Of a DNA stretch of 64,000 nt, positions 8,936-32,045 are shown in pieces (within the stretch, counting starts at the first letter, position 1; every line of letters begins with the position of its first letter). Under the pieces are notes generated by a model. That model was not told where the DNA came from, did no database searches, and worked only from the letters and a program-made list of their open reading frames with translations. The translations under genes were made by a program, and so were the position numbers. Source of the stretch: Longimicrobiales bacterium (GTDB lineage: Bacteria; Gemmatimonadota; Gemmatimonadetes; Longimicrobiales; Gaopeijiaceae); assembly GCA_965248195.1 (NCBI GenBank), contig CBDFIQ010000001.1, positions 32,001 through 96,000 of the forward strand, given 5' to 3'.

Positions 8936-10310
8936 GGTCAAGTCCCGATTTGTGTGTAAAAGCGGAGGAAGCTCCTCGCCTTCGGCTAGGCTGCTTGGGC
9001 GACCTCCTGTTTCTGGAGGAGTGAGAGGTCGAGGTAACGCCGGTCGCCCCAGACGTGTGTGGTCCTGAGTGCGACGGCCGTGATGAGCCTGAGGGCGCTG
9101 GCCCGGTCCGGGAAGGCGCCGGCGGCCTTGATCCTGCGTTTGATCTCGCCGTGCAGCCGCTCGAGGCTGTTGGTGGTACGCAGCCGGGGCCAGTGCGCCT
9201 CGGGGAACGCGTAGAACTGCGTCGCTGCCCCGAAGCCCCGCTCCAGGACCTCCACGGCCTCGGGCAGCTCCTTCTTCCAGCGTGCGCCGAACTCGCCCAG
9301 GAGCTTCTTCGCCTCGGCGAGTCCGGATGTCTGGAAGATCACCGAGACCTCACGCGCCACGCGCTTGCGTAAGCGGTGGGGGACCCTCGCCCCCACATTA
9401 CGCTGCAGATGGACCGTACACCTCTGACGGCGTGCCTCGGGCAGGAAGCGGCGGACCGCAGCTGCCAGGCCTGCGTGCTCATCGGCGATCACGAGCTCGA
9501 CACCGCCGAGGCCGCGGTCCTGGAGTTGCTCGAGGAGCTCCGACCAGCTCTGCTGCGACTCCTCAGCGCCCAGCGTGACGGCCAGGAGCCGTCGGTGACC
9601 CTCAGGGCCCACTGCATACGCCACGAGCGCACTCACGTTCTCGACTTTGCGGGCCCAGCGGGCGTCCAAGAACGTGGCGTCCAGGTACAGATAGGGGTGA
9701 GGCCCCTCGATCGGCGCACGGCGCAGCCCTTCCACGGCCTCGTCGAGCCGTTTTGCCACACGACTCACCGTCGAGCGCCCAACACGCTCGCCCATCAGCG
9801 CCTCGGTGACGTCGCCCATCTTGCGCTGTGACACGCCGCTCACATACGCCTCGACCATCATCTCGTCGAGCTCGGGCTCCTGCGCTGGTAGCGGCCGATC
9901 ACGTCGGCCGGCGAACCGTTGTCCCGGCTCCGGGGCATGGCGACCTCGATCTGCCCCAGGCTCGTCAGCAGCCGCCTCAGGTATGTGCCGTTCCTATGGT
10001 CCTTCCGGCTTCCCACCCGCTCGAAGCGGCGTGCACCTACCATGGCCTTCAGCTCCTCTTCCAGCACCATCTCGAGCGTCAGCCGGATCGCGCCTTGAAA
10101 CAGCTCGCGCAAATCATCGCGTAGCTCGTCTTGCGTGGCCCGACCGATCTCCACAATCTCTTGCATCGGAAGCTCCTCTCCGGTTCCGAGCCTGCTCTGC
10201 AGACCCGGACTCCCGGGTTCATGTGACAGTGAACAACAACAGAGGAGCTTCCGTTTTTCTTTCCCTCCTGTCCAGCTTATCCGCTTTTACACAAATCTAG
10301 GGACACTACC
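8936..10310 (-). mobile_element. IS256 copy 2 (1375 bp; 1-nt deletion near 9874 frameshifts the transposase)
   Basis: Both ends present; ctcgggctcc instead of ctcggggctcc; ORF split into 9858-10166 and 8986-9861. Confidence 0.93.
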
Positions 10311-11258
10311 CTTGCGTAGGCGGTGGGGGACCCTCGCCCCCACATTACGCTGCAGATGGACCGTACACCTCTGACGGCGTGCCTCGGGCAGGAAGCGGCG
10401 GACCGCAGCTGCCAGGCCTGCGTGCTCATCGGCGATCACGAGCTCGACACCGCCGAGGCCGCGGTCCTGGAGTTGCTCGAGGAGCTCCGACCAGCTCTGC
10501 TGCGACTCCTCAGCGCCCAGCGTGACGGCCAGGAGCCGTCGGTGACCCTCAGGGCCCACTGCATACGCCACGAGCGCACTCACGTTCTCGACTTTGCGGG
10601 CCCAGCGGGCGTCCAAGAACGTGGCGTCCAGGTACAGATAGGGGTGAGGCCCCTCGATCGGCGCACGGCGCAGCCCTTCCACGGCCTCGTCGAGCCGTTT
10701 TGCCACACGACTCACCGTCGAGCGCCCAACACGCTCGCCCATCAGCGCCTCGGTGACGTCGCCCATCTTGCGCTGTGACACGCCGCTCACATACGCCTCG
10801 ACCATCATCTCGTCGAGCTCGGGGCTCCTGCGCTGGTAGCGGCCGATCACGTCGGCCGGCGAACCGTTGTCCCGGCTCCGGGGCATGGCGACCTCGATCT
10901 GCCCCAGGCTCGTCAGCAGCCGCCTCAGGTATGTGCCGTTCCTATGGTCCTTCCGGCTTCCCACCCGCTCGAAGCGGCGTGCACCTACCATGGCCTTCAG
11001 CTCCTCTTCCAGCACCATCTCGAGCGTCAGCCGGATCGCGCCTTGAAACAGCTCGCGCAAATCATCGCGTAGCTCGTCTTGCGTGGCCCGACCGATCTCC
11101 ACAATCTCTTGCATCGGAAGCTCCTCTCCGGTTCCGAGCCTGCTCTGCAGACCCGGACTCCCGGGTTCATGTGACAGTGAACAACAACAGAGGAGCTTCC
11201 GTTTTTCTTTCCCTCCTGTCCAGCTTATCCGCTTTTACACAAATCTAGGGACACTACC
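10311..11258 (-). mobile_element. IS256 copy 3, partial (left end plus 5' ~70%)
   Basis: Tandem duplicate of 9364-10310 abutting the left end of copy 2; followed by TCGAAGAGA at 11259-11267. Confidence 0.92.
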
Positions 11259-11875: not shown

Positions 11876-11992
11876 CTCTAACGGATCTGGGTTTCTGCTG
11901 CAGGACCACAATGCCGACCCGGAGCGCGAGCCGCCAGGCGAGTGCTGCCGGACCTCGCAGCTTACCCTGTCAGCAGCAAACCCTTGTTGGGC
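11876..11992 (-). repeat. attC site, intact
   Basis: Minus strand GCCCAAC-AAGGGTTTGCTGCTGACAGG...CCTGCAGCAGAAACCCAGATCC-GTTAGAG: imperfect palindrome with single extrahelical bases. Confidence 0.85.
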
Positions 11993-12097
11993 TGCTCTCG
12001 CTTCGCCGTAGGCGCCCCTCCCAGGAGCCCTAGGCCCGGACCCGCTCGCCGTGTTCCGCCGTCAGAATCGGAGCCTCACATCCCCGGCCCGGTGTCA

Positions 12098-13198
12098 TCA
12101 CCCGTCGATCACGAGTGTCTCCGCGCCACGCCTGGGGCCGCGGCGACTCGGTCGCCACACGAGAAGCAACACGACGGCGAGAAGAAACGCATTCGCCATC
12201 CACATGGCGACAAACGGCGAGATCACCTGCCGGTCAGCGAGCGCCTCGCCCGCATGGAGCAAGGCATAATACCCGGTGAACACGAAGCCGCTCGTGCCGA
12301 GCACGAGCCCGACGCCGCCGTGCGGGAAGCGAAGCGCGGTCGCCGCGGCGGCCAACGCCAGGACCACGCACGCGGCGGCGAGAGCGAACTTCTTGTGGAT
12401 CTCGACCTCGTACGCGGCCACGCGCACGGCCGCGTCCGGCCCCGTCTCAGTTCGAGCCCGCCCTGCCGCCCCCCGCAGTTCGCCGATGGTCATCGTCCGG
12501 TCGGTCGGCTCCCGTGGAGCGCCCTTGATCACCTCCGCGAGCCGCGCGTTCGCGCGGGGAAGGACCTGAGTGTTCGAGACGAAGGTCAACGTAGCGATGA
12601 CAGCGGCAGCGCCCAGCACGGGAGCGACCAGGCGGCGGACCCCGTGGCGTTCTCGCCTCGCGGATGCGAGAACACCTTCCGCGCCCAGCCGCGTGAATAC
12701 CCACGAGACGGCAAGGAAGACGGCCATCGGGATCGTCAGTGCCAGCGTGAACGGCACCGCGAGCATCAGCACCTCGACGGTCACGCCGGCCGGGACTCCC
12801 CTCTCGCTCAGTTGCGGCAATTGCTGCACGGCGTAGTTGGCAAGCAGGATTACCGTCAGCGATCCGCACGAGAGGGCGAAAGGAGTGACGTGGCGGCGCA
12901 GCAGCTGCCGGTGCGTGAGCTTCGACATCGATGGACCTCCGGGGTTTGGGCCGTCCTCTGGCTCCCTGACGCCGACGGATCGACCCGGCGCACGGATAGT
13001 GGTTCGGATGTACCCGCTCAGCGCCAGGCGAGCGATGGCAGCGATTGCGCCCAGCGCGAAGCGCGTATGCTCGGTGGGATCAGCAATCGAGTCGAGTTCC
13101 GCCACCATCCCTCGTGCCAGCTCGCGGTGCCGCGGCGGGGAGAGTTTCACCATGCGCTCGACGATGCGCTCGAGCGCGAGGGGAGAGCGTCGCGGCAT
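12098..13198 (-). CDS. LptF/LptG-family membrane protein lacking the periplasmic domain, with an extra N-terminal domain
   Basis: PFTLALTIPMAVFLAV...F.RL..EG, VLPRAN, MTIGEL, YEVEIHKKFALAAAC, ISPFVAMWMAN; possible GTG start at 13204 overlapping the padR stop. Confidence 0.75.
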   Translation of the reverse strand: MPRRSPLALERIVERMVKLSPPRHRELARGMVAELDSIADPTEHTRFALGAIAAIARLALSGYIRTTIRAPGRSVGVREPEDGPNPGGPSMSKLTHRQLLRRHVTPFALSCGSLTVILLANYAVQQLPQLSERGVPAGVTVEVLMLAVPFTLALTIPMAVFLAVSWVFTRLGAEGVLASARRERHGVRRLVAPVLGAAAVIATLTFVSNTQVLPRANARLAEVIKGAPREPTDRTMTIGELRGAAGRARTETGPDAAVRVAAYEVEIHKKFALAAACVVLALAAAATALRFPHGGVGLVLGTSGFVFTGYYALLHAGEALADRQVISPFVAMWMANAFLLAVVLLLVWRPSRRGPRRGAETLVIDG

Positions 13199-13200
13199 GT

Positions 13201-13503
13201 TCACGCCTTGCGGGTGTGGGGAGGTCGGAGCCACGACGCCTGTGCGCGTTCCAGCGCATGGCGCGCCTGAATCCGACCAGTGGCGGTGAGGCGGTACAGC
13301 TGTCGCGGCGGCTTTCCAGGAAGCTCGGATGCTTCCCATCGCGACTCGAGCCAGCCGTCTTCGGTGAGTCGCGCGAGGAGCGGGTACAGTGTGCCTGACG
13401 AGATGTCGGCGACCTTCATCAGATCGTAGCCGTAGCGCCAGCTCCTCGGCGCCTCCAGAAAGGCGATGAGCGTGCGAGTCGTGGTGCGGGTGAGCCGTTG
13501 CAT
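13201..13503 (-). CDS. PadR family transcriptional regulator
   Basis: YGYDLMK...SGTLYPLLARLTEDGWLESRWE...PPRQLYRLTATG. Confidence 0.95.
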   Translation of the reverse strand: MQRLTRTTTRTLIAFLEAPRSWRYGYDLMKVADISSGTLYPLLARLTEDGWLESRWEASELPGKPPRQLYRLTATGRIQARHALERAQASWLRPPHTRKA

Positions 13504-13538
13504 GGCCTTAATCTACATATGTCGTATTAGACGCGCAA
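13504..13538 (-). promoter_or_regulatory. Sigma70 promoter for a leaderless padR transcript, with an overlapping operator-like palindrome
   Basis: TTGCGC-17 nt-TAGATT-6 nt-ATG; imperfect palindrome taatctACATATGTcgtatta; no RBS. Confidence 0.65.
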
Positions 13539-13653
13539 GGCCGGAGATGCTCACCCACCGCCGCCGCCACGGCGTCAGGCTCGCCACCTCCGCATTCGTG
13601 CCGGTGGGCCAGGAGCGTCGATCACTTCGAGAACGCAGCGCTCAGGCAGAGCA

Positions 13654-13675
13654 GCCTAACGGATCTGCGATTCTG
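13654..13675 (-). repeat. attC, R' arm (split by IS1111)
   Basis: gcctaacggatctgcgattctg joins 15135-15213 to rebuild a site homologous to 15810-15911. Confidence 0.85.
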
Positions 13676-13767
13676 ATCTTATAAGGCGAAAGGCTGACCT
13701 CACTCGAGCGTGGCGTTACGCTGATCTTGCTCAAAGGCCTGCGGCACCCAACCCAAGGAGGCCAGCC

Positions 13768-14805
13768 ATGTTTGTCGCAGGAATCGATGCTCACGCAACG
13801 TATTCGGTGATCGCCATCGTGAGCAACACAGGTCAGCTCGTTGCCGGACCCATCCGGATCAAGAATACGCAAGAGGATCGGCTCAATGATCTACTGGAGC
13901 AGTATCAGCCCCTGGAGGTGGTCGTCGAGACGAGTCCGGCCTGGCCGTGGCTCTTCGATCGACTCCAAGAGCGGGGGATCGACTTCGTGCTCGCTCACGC
14001 CAAGCGGCTCCGAGTCATCGCCGAGTCCAACTACAAGAGTGACGACATCGACGCCGAGTTGTTGACCCGTATGCGACTCGCGGGCCTCATCCCCGAGGTC
14101 CATCCGAAGTGCGTCGAGCAGCGGGAGCAGGCGGTACTGCTACGCAACCGGGCACGACTCGTACGCGAACGCACACGCATGGTGAACCGCATCCATGCCC
14201 AGATCCACAACGTCGGGCTTCATCTGGAGCGTGGGCGTCTGCTCACCCAGGATGGACGCCAGTGGGTGCATGACGTGGCGTGGCCGCTGCTCGGAGCCGA
14301 GCGGCGTCTGTTCATCGACATGCAGTGGGAACTCATCGACCAGATCGTGCCGATGATCAAAACGCTTGATCGCAGGGTTGAGCACGTAGGCCGCAAGGTC
14401 CCCGCTGTAGCTCTGCTCGAGACCATCCCGGGCGTCGGTTCCTATCGGGCATTGCTCATCGCCACCGAGACGTTGCCCATCAAACGATTTCGTACACCGG
14501 GGCACCTGGTCAGCTACGCCGGTCTAGCCCCTCGCTCCTCACAGTCAGGGCTCCGGCCCATCCGCCACGGATCGATCCCCGCCGGGGCCAACCGTTGGCT
14601 GAGGGGCACCTTCGTCCGGACCGTCGTGAGCCACGTCACTCACGCGCCCGACAGCTGGCTATCACAGTCGTACGAACTGATCAGGCAACGGCTCGGGTGG
14701 CAGGTCGCTCGGGTCGCTACCGCTCGGCGCCTCGCTCGTGCTGTGCACGCGATGCTCCGTACGGGTGAGGTCTGGCACGATGAACCCGTGGCTCGATCAA
14801 ACTGA
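13768..14805 (+). CDS. IS110 family recombinase/transposase
   Basis: GIDAH, VVET, KSDDIDA (DEDD); TIPGVG...SYAGLAP..SQSG (catalytic Ser)...GAN; ATARRL. Confidence 0.95.
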   Translation: MFVAGIDAHATYSVIAIVSNTGQLVAGPIRIKNTQEDRLNDLLEQYQPLEVVVETSPAWPWLFDRLQERGIDFVLAHAKRLRVIAESNYKSDDIDAELLTRMRLAGLIPEVHPKCVEQREQAVLLRNRARLVRERTRMVNRIHAQIHNVGLHLERGRLLTQDGRQWVHDVAWPLLGAERRLFIDMQWELIDQIVPMIKTLDRRVEHVGRKVPAVALLETIPGVGSYRALLIATETLPIKRFRTPGHLVSYAGLAPRSSQSGLRPIRHGSIPAGANRWLRGTFVRTVVSHVTHAPDSWLSQSYELIRQRLGWQVARVATARRLARAVHAMLRTGEVWHDEPVARSN

Positions 14806-14829
14806 GATGACACACGATGATGGACCGTA

Positions 14830-14995
14830 CCACGACAGGGGTGAGCTCCGCGCGCAGCATGTCGCACGACGACCCTCAGATTCTGATTGAGCCCCCCGCT
14901 CGCATAGCAGATCTTCGGACATCCCCGCGCTGGGATGAAACCTGAATAGATGCCTGAGTTCCTCGTGAGAGGAGACTCACCCAAGATCGGACGCG
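14830..14995 (+). ncRNA. Candidate bridge/seek RNA of the IS1111 element
   Basis: CGCGCAGCA (14851-14859) and GATTCTG (14879-14885) match the two halves of the attC target; ATAGATG (14946-14952) matches the donor junction; stems flank these segments. Boundaries are approximate. Confidence 0.75.
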
Positions 14996-15132
14996 ACGTT
15001 GGTACTGAAGGATGAAAAACGGAAGATGATCACGCAGGCCTTGAGCTACAGACCAGTGGACCGAGCCACCCCTCCGGGACCCCGGACGGGTAAGGGAGGG
15101 CTACGCCCTGTTGACTCCCTTCACCTTATAGA

Positions 15133-15213
15133 TGCTGCGCGTCCAAGATGCCGACCGTAAGCGTAGCGCGCGAGCCTGATGCCTACCGCAACTGCAGCAA
15201 TCACTTGTTAGGG
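15133..15213 (-). repeat. attC, main part with R'' (split by IS1111)
   Basis: tgctgcgcgtccaagatg...gcctaccgcaactgcagcaatcacttgttaggg; R'' overlaps the bioY TAA. Confidence 0.85.
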
Positions 15214-15729
15214 GGCTGACGACTTGGCTGATTCAGCTTCAGAGAATCCTGCGATGACCACCACCGTTACAGCTGCGACAAGGGACTTCAGCATCCCACC
15301 CATAACAAATGGGGCGACCCCCTGCCAGAATGCGGGGGTCGCCCCCAGCATCCAGGCGAGCCTCAACCACCCAAGAGCTAGAATCAGCGCATGACCGCAG
15401 ATCATGACGGCAATGGCAGGGCCGAACCGGCGGAGCAGGCCGCGGTCGGCTAATCGACCGGCCGCTGCAGCTGCCGCGACAAAGCCCAGTAGATACCCGG
15501 CGGTCGGCCCTACGAAGTGCGCCCACCCCGACCCACCTCCGGCAAAGACTGGGACGCCGATTCCGCCGACAATGAGGTAGGCGGTCAGTGTCAGGGCGCC
15601 GTCCCGAGCGCCAAGGAGGGAGCCGACGACCAGAACGGCCAGTGTTTGCGCACTCTGGGGGACGTCCGCGCCTGGGATCGTCGCAGTCACTCTCGCAGAG
15701 AGTGCAACCACCACAACACCAACGGTCAT
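15208..15729 (-). CDS. bioY: Biotin transporter BioY (gene cassette)
   Basis: VPQSAQTLAVLVVGSLLGARDG...YLIVGGIGVPVFAGG...GPTAGYLLGF...GVAPF. Confidence 0.9.
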   Translation of the reverse strand: MTVGVVVVALSARVTATIPGADVPQSAQTLAVLVVGSLLGARDGALTLTAYLIVGGIGVPVFAGGGSGWAHFVGPTAGYLLGFVAAAAAAGRLADRGLLRRFGPAIAVMICGHALILALGWLRLAWMLGATPAFWQGVAPFVMGGMLKSLVAAVTVVVIAGFSEAESAKSSAP

Positions 15730-15809
15730 CAGCGAGAGACGCCGGAGCCATCCGGTGTTCGGTGCGGTGGTGTGTGGTGGTGTTTCGATGCTCCCCCCTC
15801 AGCCCAGCC

Positions 15810-15911
15810 CCCTAACGTCTCTGCGATTCTGCTGCGTGGCTAATGTGGTGACCGCAAGCGAAGCGCGCGAGCCTCAAAGCCTACCGCGACAGTAGCAATC
15901 GCTTGTTGGAT
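15810..15911 (-). repeat. attC site, intact
   Basis: Minus strand ATCCAAC-AAGCGATTGCTACTG...GCAGCAGAATCGCAGAGAC-GTTAGGG. Confidence 0.85.
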
Positions 15912-15945
15912 GGCCCTTCGGGACGTCGTACTAAGCCGGACGCAC

Positions 15946-16341
15946 TCAGCCTGGTGCTGCCAGAACGTACGCGCGCGCGCTTCTTACGCGATCTCCAGAC
16001 CATTCGATGATCTCAGTGGCGAGCCCAGGACGGTCTTGGGTGCCGATGAGGAACTCGTACTCCACAACCGAAGTGGATTGGGTCTCAAGTACCCAGGTGA
16101 CCCTGTACCTCAGCGTGCCCTTGACCGGAGCGTAGGACGCAACGAATTCTCGGATGGCGGCGGCCCCTCGCACCGTAGCATCAGTGACGTCCGGTACACG
16201 TCCGATGACGCCAGGACCCCGATGTGTGCCGCCCTCGAGGTACTGCTGGCTTACCGATTCCGGATCAAGGCTTACCCATGCCCCTAGATAGGACTGCAGG
16301 CGCTCGCTCACCGCAACGCTTGTCTCGAGCTGTTCGCGCAC
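15946..16341 (-). CDS. NTF2/SnoaL-like protein (gene cassette; possibly 5'-truncated by an in-frame TAG)
   Basis: YLGAWVSLDPESVSQQY...VRGAAAIREF...SVVEY...ATEIIEW.GDRV..ARAY. Confidence 0.65.
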   Translation of the reverse strand: MREQLETSVAVSERLQSYLGAWVSLDPESVSQQYLEGGTHRGPGVIGRVPDVTDATVRGAAAIREFVASYAPVKGTLRYRVTWVLETQSTSVVEYEFLIGTQDRPGLATEIIEWSGDRVRSARAYVLAAPG

Positions 16342-16409
16342 CGGCTACGCCAGGGCCATGACCGGCGGGAGGACTACAAGAACCTTGTGAGTGCACCGCA
16401 CCTCAACCC

Positions 16410-16475
16410 CCCTAAGCAACGTGAACATGGGCCATCTAACTTTCAACTGTACTGCGAATCCTCTTGATCTTCTAA
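16410..16475 (-). promoter_or_regulatory. Candidate attI (first crossover point, GTTAGAT at 16440-16434)
   Basis: gggccatctaac (16429-16440) is complementary 11/12 to gttggatggccc (15905-15916); no attC palindrome upstream. Confidence 0.5.
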
Positions 16476-16772
16476 AGCGGATCCGTTGCGTGGATGGCAA
16501 CGTAGGAGAGACCAAGAGGGCCCGACAGACCCGGTGCAGTCCGCCGCTTGTGGCTTCTTTGCCCTCGGGTTTGGGTTGCCCCGGAGACGTGTTGGTTGCG
16601 TCGGGGAGGCTGTCGGTCGGTGGCAGCCTAGATACCAGAAAACAAACGGGCTCCCGCCTCCGGGCCGTGCACCAGCTCCGCGACTCGAGTAGACTGTCCG
16701 CGGGATTACGGTGACCATGACACCGAGCTGCCATCGTGGCAGCGTGCTGAAGTTTCATACCCGGGAGATTCC

Positions 16773-31197: not shown

Positions 31198-32045
31198 CCG
31201 ATCCTGGTGACGCCCCACTCACGCCCGTGGAGGCGACGGCAGAAGTGCTCGATGCCCAGAAGGCTCGCCATCCGATTGCGCTCATGGTTGCCGTGTCCGG
31301 CGCTTCGCAGCTCGTAGGCAAGCGGGTGGTCGTCCGTCAGGCGAAGGGCGGGGCCAAACGCCTCGTGGGTTCGTTCGGCGACGCCGATCTCGACGACGGG
31401 GCGTTGGCGCTGGGCACGCAGAGGCTCGAGGACCGGAGAGTCTCCACGCAAGGTGTGCACGAGCTGAAAACGGCTTCCGGCCCGGCGATCCAGGTGTATG
31501 TCGAGGCGCATTACCCCCACCCGGAGCTGGTGATCGTCGGCGCCGGCCATATCGCACAGCCTCTGTGCTCCATGGGTGCGTTGATGGGCTTTCGCGTCAT
31601 CGTCGTGGACGATCGGCCCGACTTCGCCACCCGGGAGCGCTTCCCCGAAGCCGACCGCGTGGTCGGGGTCGATTTCAGGGATCCATTCGCGGACGTCCCC
31701 ATCCACTCGACGAGTTACGTCGTGCTGGTGACCCGGGGCCACAAGTACGACTTCGAGTGCCTGCGCCACTTGCTGAAAACCGAGGTGGAGCCACCTTACG
31801 TGGGCATGATCGGAAGCCGGCGGCGCATACGAGCGGCCTACTCACAGCTCCAAGGCGAAGGAATGCCTAAGGATCGGCTGTCCCGGGTACGTGCCCCGGT
31901 TGGTCTGGACATCGGGGCCGAGACCCCCGTTGAAATCGCCGTCGCAGTCGCGGCGGAGATCGTCCTGCAGTGGAGAGGCGGCACCGGCGCCCCTATGGCG
32001 GAACAGGAGCGTATTTTGGAACGATTCTTCAAAGGAAGCGAATGA
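31194..32045 (+). CDS. XdhC family protein (Rossmann domain)
   Basis: IVGAGHIA, VDDRPDFA, TRGH..D, YVGMIGSRR, APVGLDIGAETPVEIA. Confidence 0.92.
   Translation: MTDPGDAPLTPVEATAEVLDAQKARHPIALMVAVSGASQLVGKRVVVRQAKGGAKRLVGSFGDADLDDGALALGTQRLEDRRVSTQGVHELKTASGPAIQVYVEAHYPHPELVIVGAGHIAQPLCSMGALMGFRVIVVDDRPDFATRERFPEADRVVGVDFRDPFADVPIHSTSYVVLVTRGHKYDFECLRHLLKTEVEPPYVGMIGSRRRIRAAYSQLQGEGMPKDRLSRVRAPVGLDIGAETPVEIAVAVAAEIVLQWRGGTGAPMAEQERILERFFKGSE

Follow-up and report, generated by a model that had tools for sequence, protein, structure and literature searches.

A probable RNA-guided IS1111-type insertion sequence in the attC-like sites of a Longimicrobiales bacterium

Introduction

How an insertion sequence comes to occupy one and the same position in a family of repeated chromosomal sites is the question raised by a locus in the genome of a Longimicrobiales bacterium (Gemmatimonadota; assembly GCA_965248195.1). 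The stretch of DNA analyzed, referred to here as the window, comprises 64,000 nucleotides (positions 32,001 to 96,000 of contig CBDFIQ010000001.1) and contains, at 13676-15134, a 1,459-bp insertion sequence that splits a site resembling the attC sites of integron gene cassettes. As judged from sequence comparison, this is very probably an IS1111-type element that is intact and has been active recently, and its recombinase would be steered into attC-like sites by a non-coding RNA of its own, of the kind known as seekRNA or bridge RNA. A first-pass annotation of the window had already proposed an intact RNA-guided recombinase programmed against the attC family of this lineage, and we maintain that proposal because the junctions are uniform, the catalytic residues and reading frames are intact, and the guides covary with the flanks.

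Earlier papers on IS1111 elements found in attC sites (ISKpn4, ISPst6, ISPa21 and ISPa25) are reportedly those of Tetu and Holmes in 2008 and Post and Hall in 2009. The seekRNAs of three of them, ISKpn4, ISPst6 and ISPa25, were published in 2024 (Siddiquee et al.; PMC11187229), and this kind of element is therefore already known; what is described here is a further example of a published mechanism, from a distant lineage and with another attC family and insertion point.

The element and the site that it interrupts

The limits of the element were read from the sequence. The left flank, ...GCGATTCTG, ends at 13675; the element opens with ATCTTATAAGG at 13676 and closes with CCTTATAGATG at 15134, and CTGCGCG follows. 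The junction sequence is ...GCCTAACGGATCTGCGATTCTG / ATCTTATAAGGCG ... CACCTTATAGATG / CTGCGCGTCCAAG...GTTAGGG, with breaks after 13675 and 15134. Target duplication is absent and, because the dinucleotide TG is common to the left flank and the right end of the element, both of which it closes, the element can equally be written 13674-15132. The sub-terminal inverted repeats typical of IS1111 are present, lying 4 nt inside each end, agreeing at 12 of 14 positions and kept in relatives, and non-coding sequence amounts to 92 nt before the start codon of the recombinase gene and 329 nt after its stop codon. In empty paralogous sites of the host genome GATTCTGCTGCGCG stands uninterrupted. The parts of the locus are as follows:

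13654-13675, + strand: left part of the interrupted attC-like site (R box GCCTAAC at 13654-13660, spacer, GATTC and core TG at 13669-13675)
13676-15134, + strand: IS1111-type insertion sequence, 1,459 bp, delimited by its flanks and by empty paralogous sites
13680-13693, + strand: left sub-terminal inverted repeat TATAAGGCGAAAGG, containing the -10-like TATAAG; 12/14 complementary to 15117-15130
13768-14805, + strand: recombinase gene, 345 aa (ribosome-binding site AAGGAGG at 13755-13761; PF01548, PF02371, NF033542)
15111-15116, + strand: TTGACT, -35-like hexamer, ending 18 nt from the element end
15117-15130, + strand: right sub-terminal inverted repeat CCCTTCACCTTATA, read from the sequence and kept in relatives
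15135-15217, + strand: right part of the interrupted attC-like site (CTGCGCG at 15135-15141, variable center, opposite arm, R box GTTAGGG)

Guides in the non-coding region follow the flanks of each element

Within the 329 nt downstream of the gene, CGCGCAGCA at 14851-14859 is the reverse complement of TG-CTGCGCG (9/9), and GATTCTG at 14879-14885 equals the left half-target plus the core (7/7). On both strands of the 64-kb window CGCGCAGCA and GATTCTGAT would be expected 1.29 and 0.49 times by chance, and on one strand of the 329-nt stretch about 0.003 and 0.001 times, respectively. The predicted RNA has the following parts:

14839-14896, + strand: target-binding loop (stem P1 14839-14848/14889-14896, inner hairpin at about 14861-14873, both target guides)
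14851-14859, + strand: 5' target guide CGCGCAG and core CA, predicted to pair with the + strand of TG-CTGCGCG (15133-15141); 9/9
14879-14887, + strand: 3' target guide GAUUC and core UG, then AU; the guide, 14879-14885, is predicted to pair with the - strand of the left half-target; 7/7
14910-14988, + strand: second domain, a multiloop (P2, hairpin H1, single-stranded GAAACCUGAAUAGAUGCC, hairpin H2)
14946-14954, + strand: right-end donor guide AUAGA and core UG, then C (guide 14946-14952; candidate handshake base C at 14953)

The relatives compared, designated by L numbers, were 76 loci from species-representative genomes and 80 from metagenome contigs (sediment), with 46 left and 52 right flanks readable, collapsed to one example per guide class. 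Most of them share the scaffold GAGCTCC-(guide)CA-TGTCGC..GACGACC-(guide)TG-A(T/C)-TGAGCCCCC, in which about 25 differing guide pairs are set. When the 3' guide was compared with the six bases before the core, 111 of 150 positions matched over 25 classes, against 60.0 +/- 5.3 with shuffled flanks; for the 5' guide and the eight bases after the core the figures were 143 of 192 over 24 classes, against 69.1 +/- 7.0. Neither value was reached in any of 10,000 shuffles. Position by position, the signal covers five bases to the left of the core (1.00, 0.92, 0.92, 0.80, 0.56) and exactly seven to its right (0.75-0.96), position 8 being at background (0.12). The annotation had held that removal of 13676-15134 rebuilds an attC containing GATTC-TG-CTGCGCG, that this target is parsed as 7+2+5 nt and that two target guides lie at 14851-14859 and 14879-14885, and had named covariation across homologues as a check: each string is found at its coordinates, the footprint is that of the parse, and the guides covary with the flanks.

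Guides and insertion points also shift together. In L038, L097 and L105 the insertion lies after GATTCTGCTG on the same attC arm, with the guides shifted to ..CGCG-CA and TTCTGC-TG, and in L106, inserted before CGATTCTG, a register shift on that arm is again accompanied by a matching shift of the guides. Other relatives have unrelated targets, among them L034 and L035 with a non-attC one, the palindrome CGTTTC-TG-AAACG.

One locus of the Longimicrobiales, L031:1409-3114, shows a full copy followed directly by a partial one that starts after the guide-coding GATTCTG (element position 1209), with GGTTCTG and CTGCACG as the outer flanks. This tandem may have arisen by insertion into the guide-coding DNA of a resident copy plus a deletion, or by some other rearrangement.

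A conserved predicted RNA structure around the guides

An alignment of 44 distinct relatives was used to derive an RNAalifold consensus, which was extended by hand and its pairs counted. The structure comprises 30 pairs, and 92.6% of cells are paired, as compared to 35-49% when the partner is slid. Twelve pairs change on both sides, in 51 cells. On four of five measures the observed value is reached by 0 of 500 shuffles, and on the fifth by no more than 1. In stem P1, which is 99.4% paired, five sequences carry one double change of G-C to A-U, and the inner hairpin between the target guides is 88% paired. P2 (14910-14913/14985-14988 plus 14917-14918/14980-14981) is 97.7% paired. In H1 (14920-14924/14933-14937, CATCCC/GGGATG) all five pairs change on both sides, and in H2 (14955-14960/14974-14979) four of seven do so. 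The enclosing stem and the CATCCC/GGGATG hairpin, both drawn in the annotation, are thus backed by pair counts over the 44 relatives.

We place the RNA on the + strand because the core then stands at the 3' end of both guides, as in IS621 and in the printed ISKpn4 region, and because the IS1111 family makes its RNA downstream of, and with, the recombinase message; presumably it is made here in the same way, from the + strand together with that message.

In the mechanism that we propose, the recombinase would be steered by an RNA from the 329-nt region. In its first domain, CGCGCAG-CA would pair with one strand of the right half-target and GAUUC-UG with the other strand of the left half-target, so that the two guides would jointly read the 14 bp GATTC-TG-CTGCGCG, with TG as the crossover core. 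Landing in one orientation and without target duplication would be expected, because this 14-bp target lies in one arm of a conserved attC-like hairpin. In the second domain, the multiloop, AUAGA-UG would read the right end of the element.

The donor side

The segment AUAGAUG (14946-14952) is identical to the sequence with which the element closes on the right, ...ATAGA-TG. Where a relative has ATAGGTG at that end, it carries AUAGGUG instead; one of these relatives is L026, whose repeats are otherwise of the window type. L034, with right end GCAGCTG, has the guide AGCUG. The annotation had named AGATC (14909-14913) as a second donor guide beside ATAGATG, and AAGATCG (14983-14989) as an alternative to it. 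Only ATAGATG tracks the variants of its end. AGAUC is unchanged in elements with the left ends ACCTT or ATCCT, AGAU being constant across eight distinct combinations of guides with ACCTT. In L123 and L156, GAUC becomes GAUAC and the downstream GAUC becomes GUAUC, the one double change seen in P2, and the left end is still ATCTT. Because both segments changed together and the left end stayed constant, we think it likely that AGAUC and 14985-14988 (GAUC) pair with each other in the RNA. The proposed alternative guide contains this predicted P2 partner of AGATC, does not track left-end variants either, and is not supported. A further segment, GAAGATGATCA near 15022-15032, matches the predicted circle junction; it occurs in the closest relatives only and was set aside.

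We think it somewhat improbable, yet worth keeping in view, that the left end is nonetheless read by AGAUC, in a simple donor loop like that of IS621 together with AUAGAUG, the copy at 14983-14989 being a spare or regulatory partner. The position of AGAUC, 5' of the right-end guide, is that of the second donor guide in IS621, its sequence complements G-ATCT of the junction, and most relatives of the ATAGGTG group have AGAUCA, able to pair with the full TG-ATCT. Against this, AGAU does not change in elements with the left ends ACCTT (the eight combinations) or ATCCT, the base that follows AGAUC varies freely (A, U, G, C), and the paired changes of L123 and L156 go with a constant left end ATCTT.

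With AUAGAUG taken as the right-end guide, the bases that follow the guides can be considered. According to PMC11208158, a guide of IS621 is followed on its 3' side by two bases that, once strands have been exchanged, pair with the other DNA partner. When the base after the donor guide AUAG(A/G)UG was compared with the first right-target base predicted by the 5' guide, a predicted C was accompanied by C in 28 cases and by T in none, and a predicted T by T in 5 and by C in 2 (Fisher p = 6e-5). Likewise, the dinucleotide after the 3' target guide follows the first two bases of the element: with a left end starting AT it is AU in 11 cases and AC in 4, and with AC it is AC in 8 and AU in none (Fisher p = 0.0013). 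In the proposed mechanism AU, directly after the 3' target guide, and C, directly after the donor guide, would match the other DNA partner, which suggests a strand-exchange logic like that of IS621. That AU (14886-14887) and C (14953) are handshake positions of this kind is a consistent hint and not proof.

The recombinase

The 345-aa protein lies inside the IS1111 range of 330-350 aa and contains PF01548 (E 3.8e-15, N-terminal RuvC-like DEDD domain) and PF02371 (E 2.5e-15, C-terminal transposase domain), the two domains that characterize recombinases of the IS110 family; it scores 191.1 bits with NCBIfam NF033542, for which the cut-off is 140. In an alignment with 11 relatives D7, E54, D92, D95, S260 and G261 are invariant, and the serine motif GLAPRSSQSG, which contains S260, fits the IS1111 motif GL-P----S(t)G. 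According to PMC11187229, elements of the IS1111 type are recognized by a downstream non-coding region, sub-terminal repeats of 7-17 bp, the length of the protein and the GL-P----SG motif; all four features are present here.

A PDB search with the single recombinase protein gave no match. A profile built from the alignment of relatives reaches the solved transposases of IS621 and ISCro4, and places YAGLAPRSSQSG, which holds the SG motif, on the equivalent stretch of the IS621 transposase (8wt6), whose catalytic serine is S241 (PMC11208158). In a tblastn search of 72,556 plasmids the best identity was 33-36%, the nearest named matches belonged to the ISHvo10 family (30%) and the IS884 family (31% over one third of the protein), and among the matches listed there was no enterobacterial or pseudomonad organism, even at E 0.01. 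Relatives with more than 48% identity all come from Gemmatimonadota, many of them labeled Longimicrobiales.

Copies and target use in the host genome

The host genome (2 contigs, 4.86 Mb, 63% G+C) holds 7 full copies of the element at 99-100% identity and 10 partial matches. GATTCTG is terminal at all 13 left junctions, 11 of which have the context ...TAAC-N8-GCGATTCTG, and the 11 right junctions read CTGCGCG (9), TTGCGCG (1) and CTGCGCA (1). Copies in unrelated sites would have spoken against the annotation; all 13 left and 11 right junctions use the target. Vacant targets are also left, 2 perfect and 10 with one mismatch, mostly in the same family of attC-like sites. One lies in the window:

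15811-15915, + strand: unoccupied attC-like site of the same family (nhmmer 103.6 bits; predicted target GATTCTGCTGCGTG at 15825-15838)

This is the unoccupied attC that the annotation had placed at 15810, with a match at 13 of 14 positions, and named as a predicted target; the match is confirmed, and its single difference would give a G-T wobble with the guide.

It could be argued that these copies are inactive relics of a past spread and that the RNA is vestigial. None of the 10 further matches is whole, each being truncated or interrupted, in two cases by an IS3-like element, and no circle junction appears in contigs of public runs. We nevertheless consider this very unlikely: the 7 full copies occupy different sites, differ from the window copy at 0-12 positions, retain the 345-aa frame open and all catalytic residues, the guides match their targets perfectly, and perfect or near-perfect empty targets remain.

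Some individual copies deserve mention. In the full copy at C1:497276-498734 a C to T change at element position 1176 affects the outermost base of the 5' target guide, and the right flank is still CTGCGCG. At C1:501105-502669 and C1:1102423-1103324 two copies are split by the 1,565-bp IS3-like element, which has two overlapping frames and about 50 near-identical full-length copies in the host genome (at least 48 of full length); one of the two insertions within copies of the element is internally deleted.

Beyond the host, the non-coding region was sought in 151 genomes of the same order with at most four candidates scored per genome, so that the counts are lower bounds. It was present in at least 5 of the 151, host included, with a patchy distribution, and gave no match in the one genome of the same genus that was sampled.

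The attC-like site family

A profile made from 8 empty sites finds 37 sites of the family in the host genome (nhmmer). Ten of the 37 matches start at model position 22, which is the insertion point, adjoining a copy of the element in one relative orientation; the site to the right of the window element is one such match (C1:47133-47217). The sites share with attC the R boxes (C)TAAC...GTTAG, a length of about 105 nt and an imperfect hairpin with two bulged bases; the one at 15811-15915 folds in this way, with the target within one arm. They occur in arrays with a spacing of 0.4-0.8 kb, and 5 kb from one array there is a broken gene resembling an integron integrase (238.7 bits against the TIGR02249 cut-off of 265, with two TAG stops). 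This intI-like gene, at C1:1112697-1113260, covers only TIGR02249 model positions 120-307; it lies next to the cassette array of C1:1081-1107 kb and is probably a dead intI. Taken together, the R boxes, the hairpin shape, the arrays and the intI-like gene make the attC identity of the family well supported, and we infer it without counting it as established, because no curated attC model was used and the predicted folds are not better than those of shuffled sequences. In an Rfam scan of 13000-16500 no family was found at E values up to 1.

Where cassette genes have Pfam matches (an LptF/LptG-like permease, PadR, BioY), they are encoded on the other strand than the recombinase gene. The longest frame is on that other strand in 9 of 11 cassettes, a measure of little weight when G+C is high. 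If this is the cassette strand, the element would lie in the arm that adjoins the R' box, at a distance of 15 nt from the box, and point against the cassettes.

That the target sits in a structured and repeated site, and that the RNA has not been observed directly, would fit a protein that recognizes the attC hairpin or sequence by itself, with the matches in the non-coding region as by-products, and this explanation can hardly be sustained, since about 25 guide classes on one scaffold track their own flanks with a sharp 5+2+7 footprint, the tracking guides include one for a non-attC target (the L034/L035 palindrome), and published relatives require the RNA (PMC11187229).

Two more sites of the family were found in the window, at 2574-2668 (nhmmer, 81.8 bits) and 11877-11996 (35.7 bits), so that 2.5-16 kb appears to be a small cassette array. 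Both are unoccupied and have degraded targets: GATT-TGCTGCGCG, with one base missing, and GTTTCTGCTGCAGG, with three mismatches. The summed contig depth over the attC arm 15142-15208 was 1,520 in one RNA library, against about 20-190 over the element, and 8,798 in one sediment metagenome, against about 80-1,100. The attC family thus appears to be very abundant in marine sediments, summed contig depths being a poor measure of this.

Expression and a candidate junction promoter

A scan of 13500-15300 detected neither a sigma-70-like promoter nor a terminator in the linear element. The annotation had suggested that TTGACT could supply a promoter at the junction of a circular form. The hexamer is indeed at 15111-15116, and in all 31 of the 31 distinct end pairs TTGAC is invariant and stops 18 nt short of the element end; TATAA(G/A) in the left repeat is also kept in relatives. 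The promoter itself does not follow as readily. Across the circle junction the sole -10-like hexamer is TATAAG in the left repeat, 4 nt inside the end, which leaves a spacer of 22 nt, and because this is longer than usual we treat a promoter formed by TTGACT and the left end as possible and unproven, the alternative being read-through from outside. It presupposes a circular intermediate, which presumably forms.

Near-identical sequence occurs in public runs, most of which are metagenomes of sediments and marine sediments. Two metatranscriptome libraries have contigs that cover relatives of the gene plus the non-coding region (for instance 14747-14915, with 6 differences); such cover does not prove transcription, given that DNA carry-over is possible, and the uncovered parts are uninformative. 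Joints that skip from 13674/13675 to 15135-15191 were considered as signs of excision and rejected: their shorter side has only 20-26 letters, and they derive from empty paralogous attC sites.

Points that weigh against an RNA-guided element

The following observations speak against the RNA-guided reading or parts of it. Several guide-flank pairs match poorly, for example those of L160 (3/8) and of L047 and L142 (4/8 each), and the insertions of L026/L111 and L143 are offset by one base. On the donor side, the right-end guide of L160 is one mismatch off, the sole exception where both guide and end could be read, and in the non-coding regions of relatives no segment tracks the left-end variants ATCTT, ACCTT and ATCCT. 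The Fisher tests overstate independence because the sequences are related, and the T-type handshake comes from four guide classes with two exceptions. The single-sequence fold of 14835-15007 differs from the comparative structure and is not better than shuffles (z = -0.52), and the pair counts (G-U versus A-C cells) are not decisive as to strand, with 92.6% for + and 91.3% for -. The attC identity has no curated attC model behind it, and the predicted attC folds are likewise no better than shuffles. Finally, in the contigs of the public runs searched there was no circle junction or back-joint, and neither the RNA nor an excision product was observed.

Comparison with known systems

The element resembles the IS1111-attC group in being of the IS1111 type and in its orientation-specific insertion into attC sites of gene cassettes; that group has hosts among the Proteobacteria, whereas the present one is from Gemmatimonadota of sediments. 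PMC11187229 describes the published seekRNAs as co-purifying with the transposase and matching both strands of the target. According to the same source, the transposases of ISPst6 and ISKpn4 are 76-89% identical among themselves, and ISPa25, with 46% identity, shows the same matches. The published insertion point of the group was taken from PMC11187229 and general background. As we read the printed non-coding region of ISKpn4, its layout matches that of the window element (PMC11187229, Supplementary Table 1). The guides that we read in the printed non-coding regions of ISKpn4 and ISPst6 are unrelated to CGCGCAGCA and GAUUCUG, and the attC family differs. ISKpn4 reads, in our interpretation, the arm that starts right at an R box, with the class 1 attC sequence as reference, whereas the window element lies 15 nt from the R box and probably in the opposite arm. 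The distance from the recombinases of ISKpn4 and ISPa25 was judged indirectly, from there being no plasmid record above 36% identity. An acquisition of attC targeting independently of the ISKpn4/ISPst6/ISPa25 group seems likely.

With IS621, a member of the IS110 group (Durrant et al. 2024, PMC11208160; Hiraizumi et al. 2024, PMC11208158), the element shares a DEDD plus serine recombinase, a 14-bp target divided as 7+2+5, two guides, one for each strand, and a core of 2 nt. It further has a predicted second RNA domain for the donor, as IS621 does, and candidate handshake bases that follow the guide immediately on its 3' side. The RNA is encoded upstream of the gene in IS621 and downstream here, and the core is CT there and TG here; in the present element the 7-nt guide reads the right flank, an arrangement mirrored relative to the orientation of the element, there are long sub-terminal inverted repeats, the donor guide is in a multiloop, and the similarity of the proteins is detectable by profile only. 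PMC11208160 reports bridge RNAs predicted in the right end of 93% of IS1111 elements and donor-binding bases within a multiloop in many members, with which our placement of the donor guide fits.

The IS1111 family member ISEc11 reportedly forms a junction promoter on circularization, as said to be described by Prosseda et al. in 2006. In its printed non-coding region 18 nt separate TTGCAA from the end (PMC11187229), the same distance as for TTGACT; the difference lies in the left end of the present element, where the sole -10-like hexamer starts 4 nt inside and gives the 22-nt spacer.

The chances seem to us evenly balanced that the elements described here form a separate IS1111 lineage of Gemmatimonadota, which reached attC targeting independently through a different arm and site family, whose roughly 25 guide sets display a mirrored form of the 7+2+5 parse and handshake of IS621, and whose sister elements walk along the attC arm from TG to TG by changes of guide register. 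To our knowledge, IS621 is the main system for which such guide rules have been established to date. About 25 guide pairs on one scaffold, each beside its own target, define for an IS1111-type element how long the footprint is, which mismatches are tolerated and where handshake positions are likely to lie, and the compact 345-aa recombinases, from an under-sampled phylum, could be tried as programmable recombinases. For the host, about a quarter of one attC family (10 of 37) in a sedentary chromosomal array is split by a single element, and cassette excision should be blocked at the split sites.

Other mobile elements in the window

Mobile elements abound in this region of the window. At 10287-11114, on the - strand, there is a Mutator-family transposase gene (PF00872, E 1.5e-72), and another repeat, at about 8682, is found in 5 places of the host genome.

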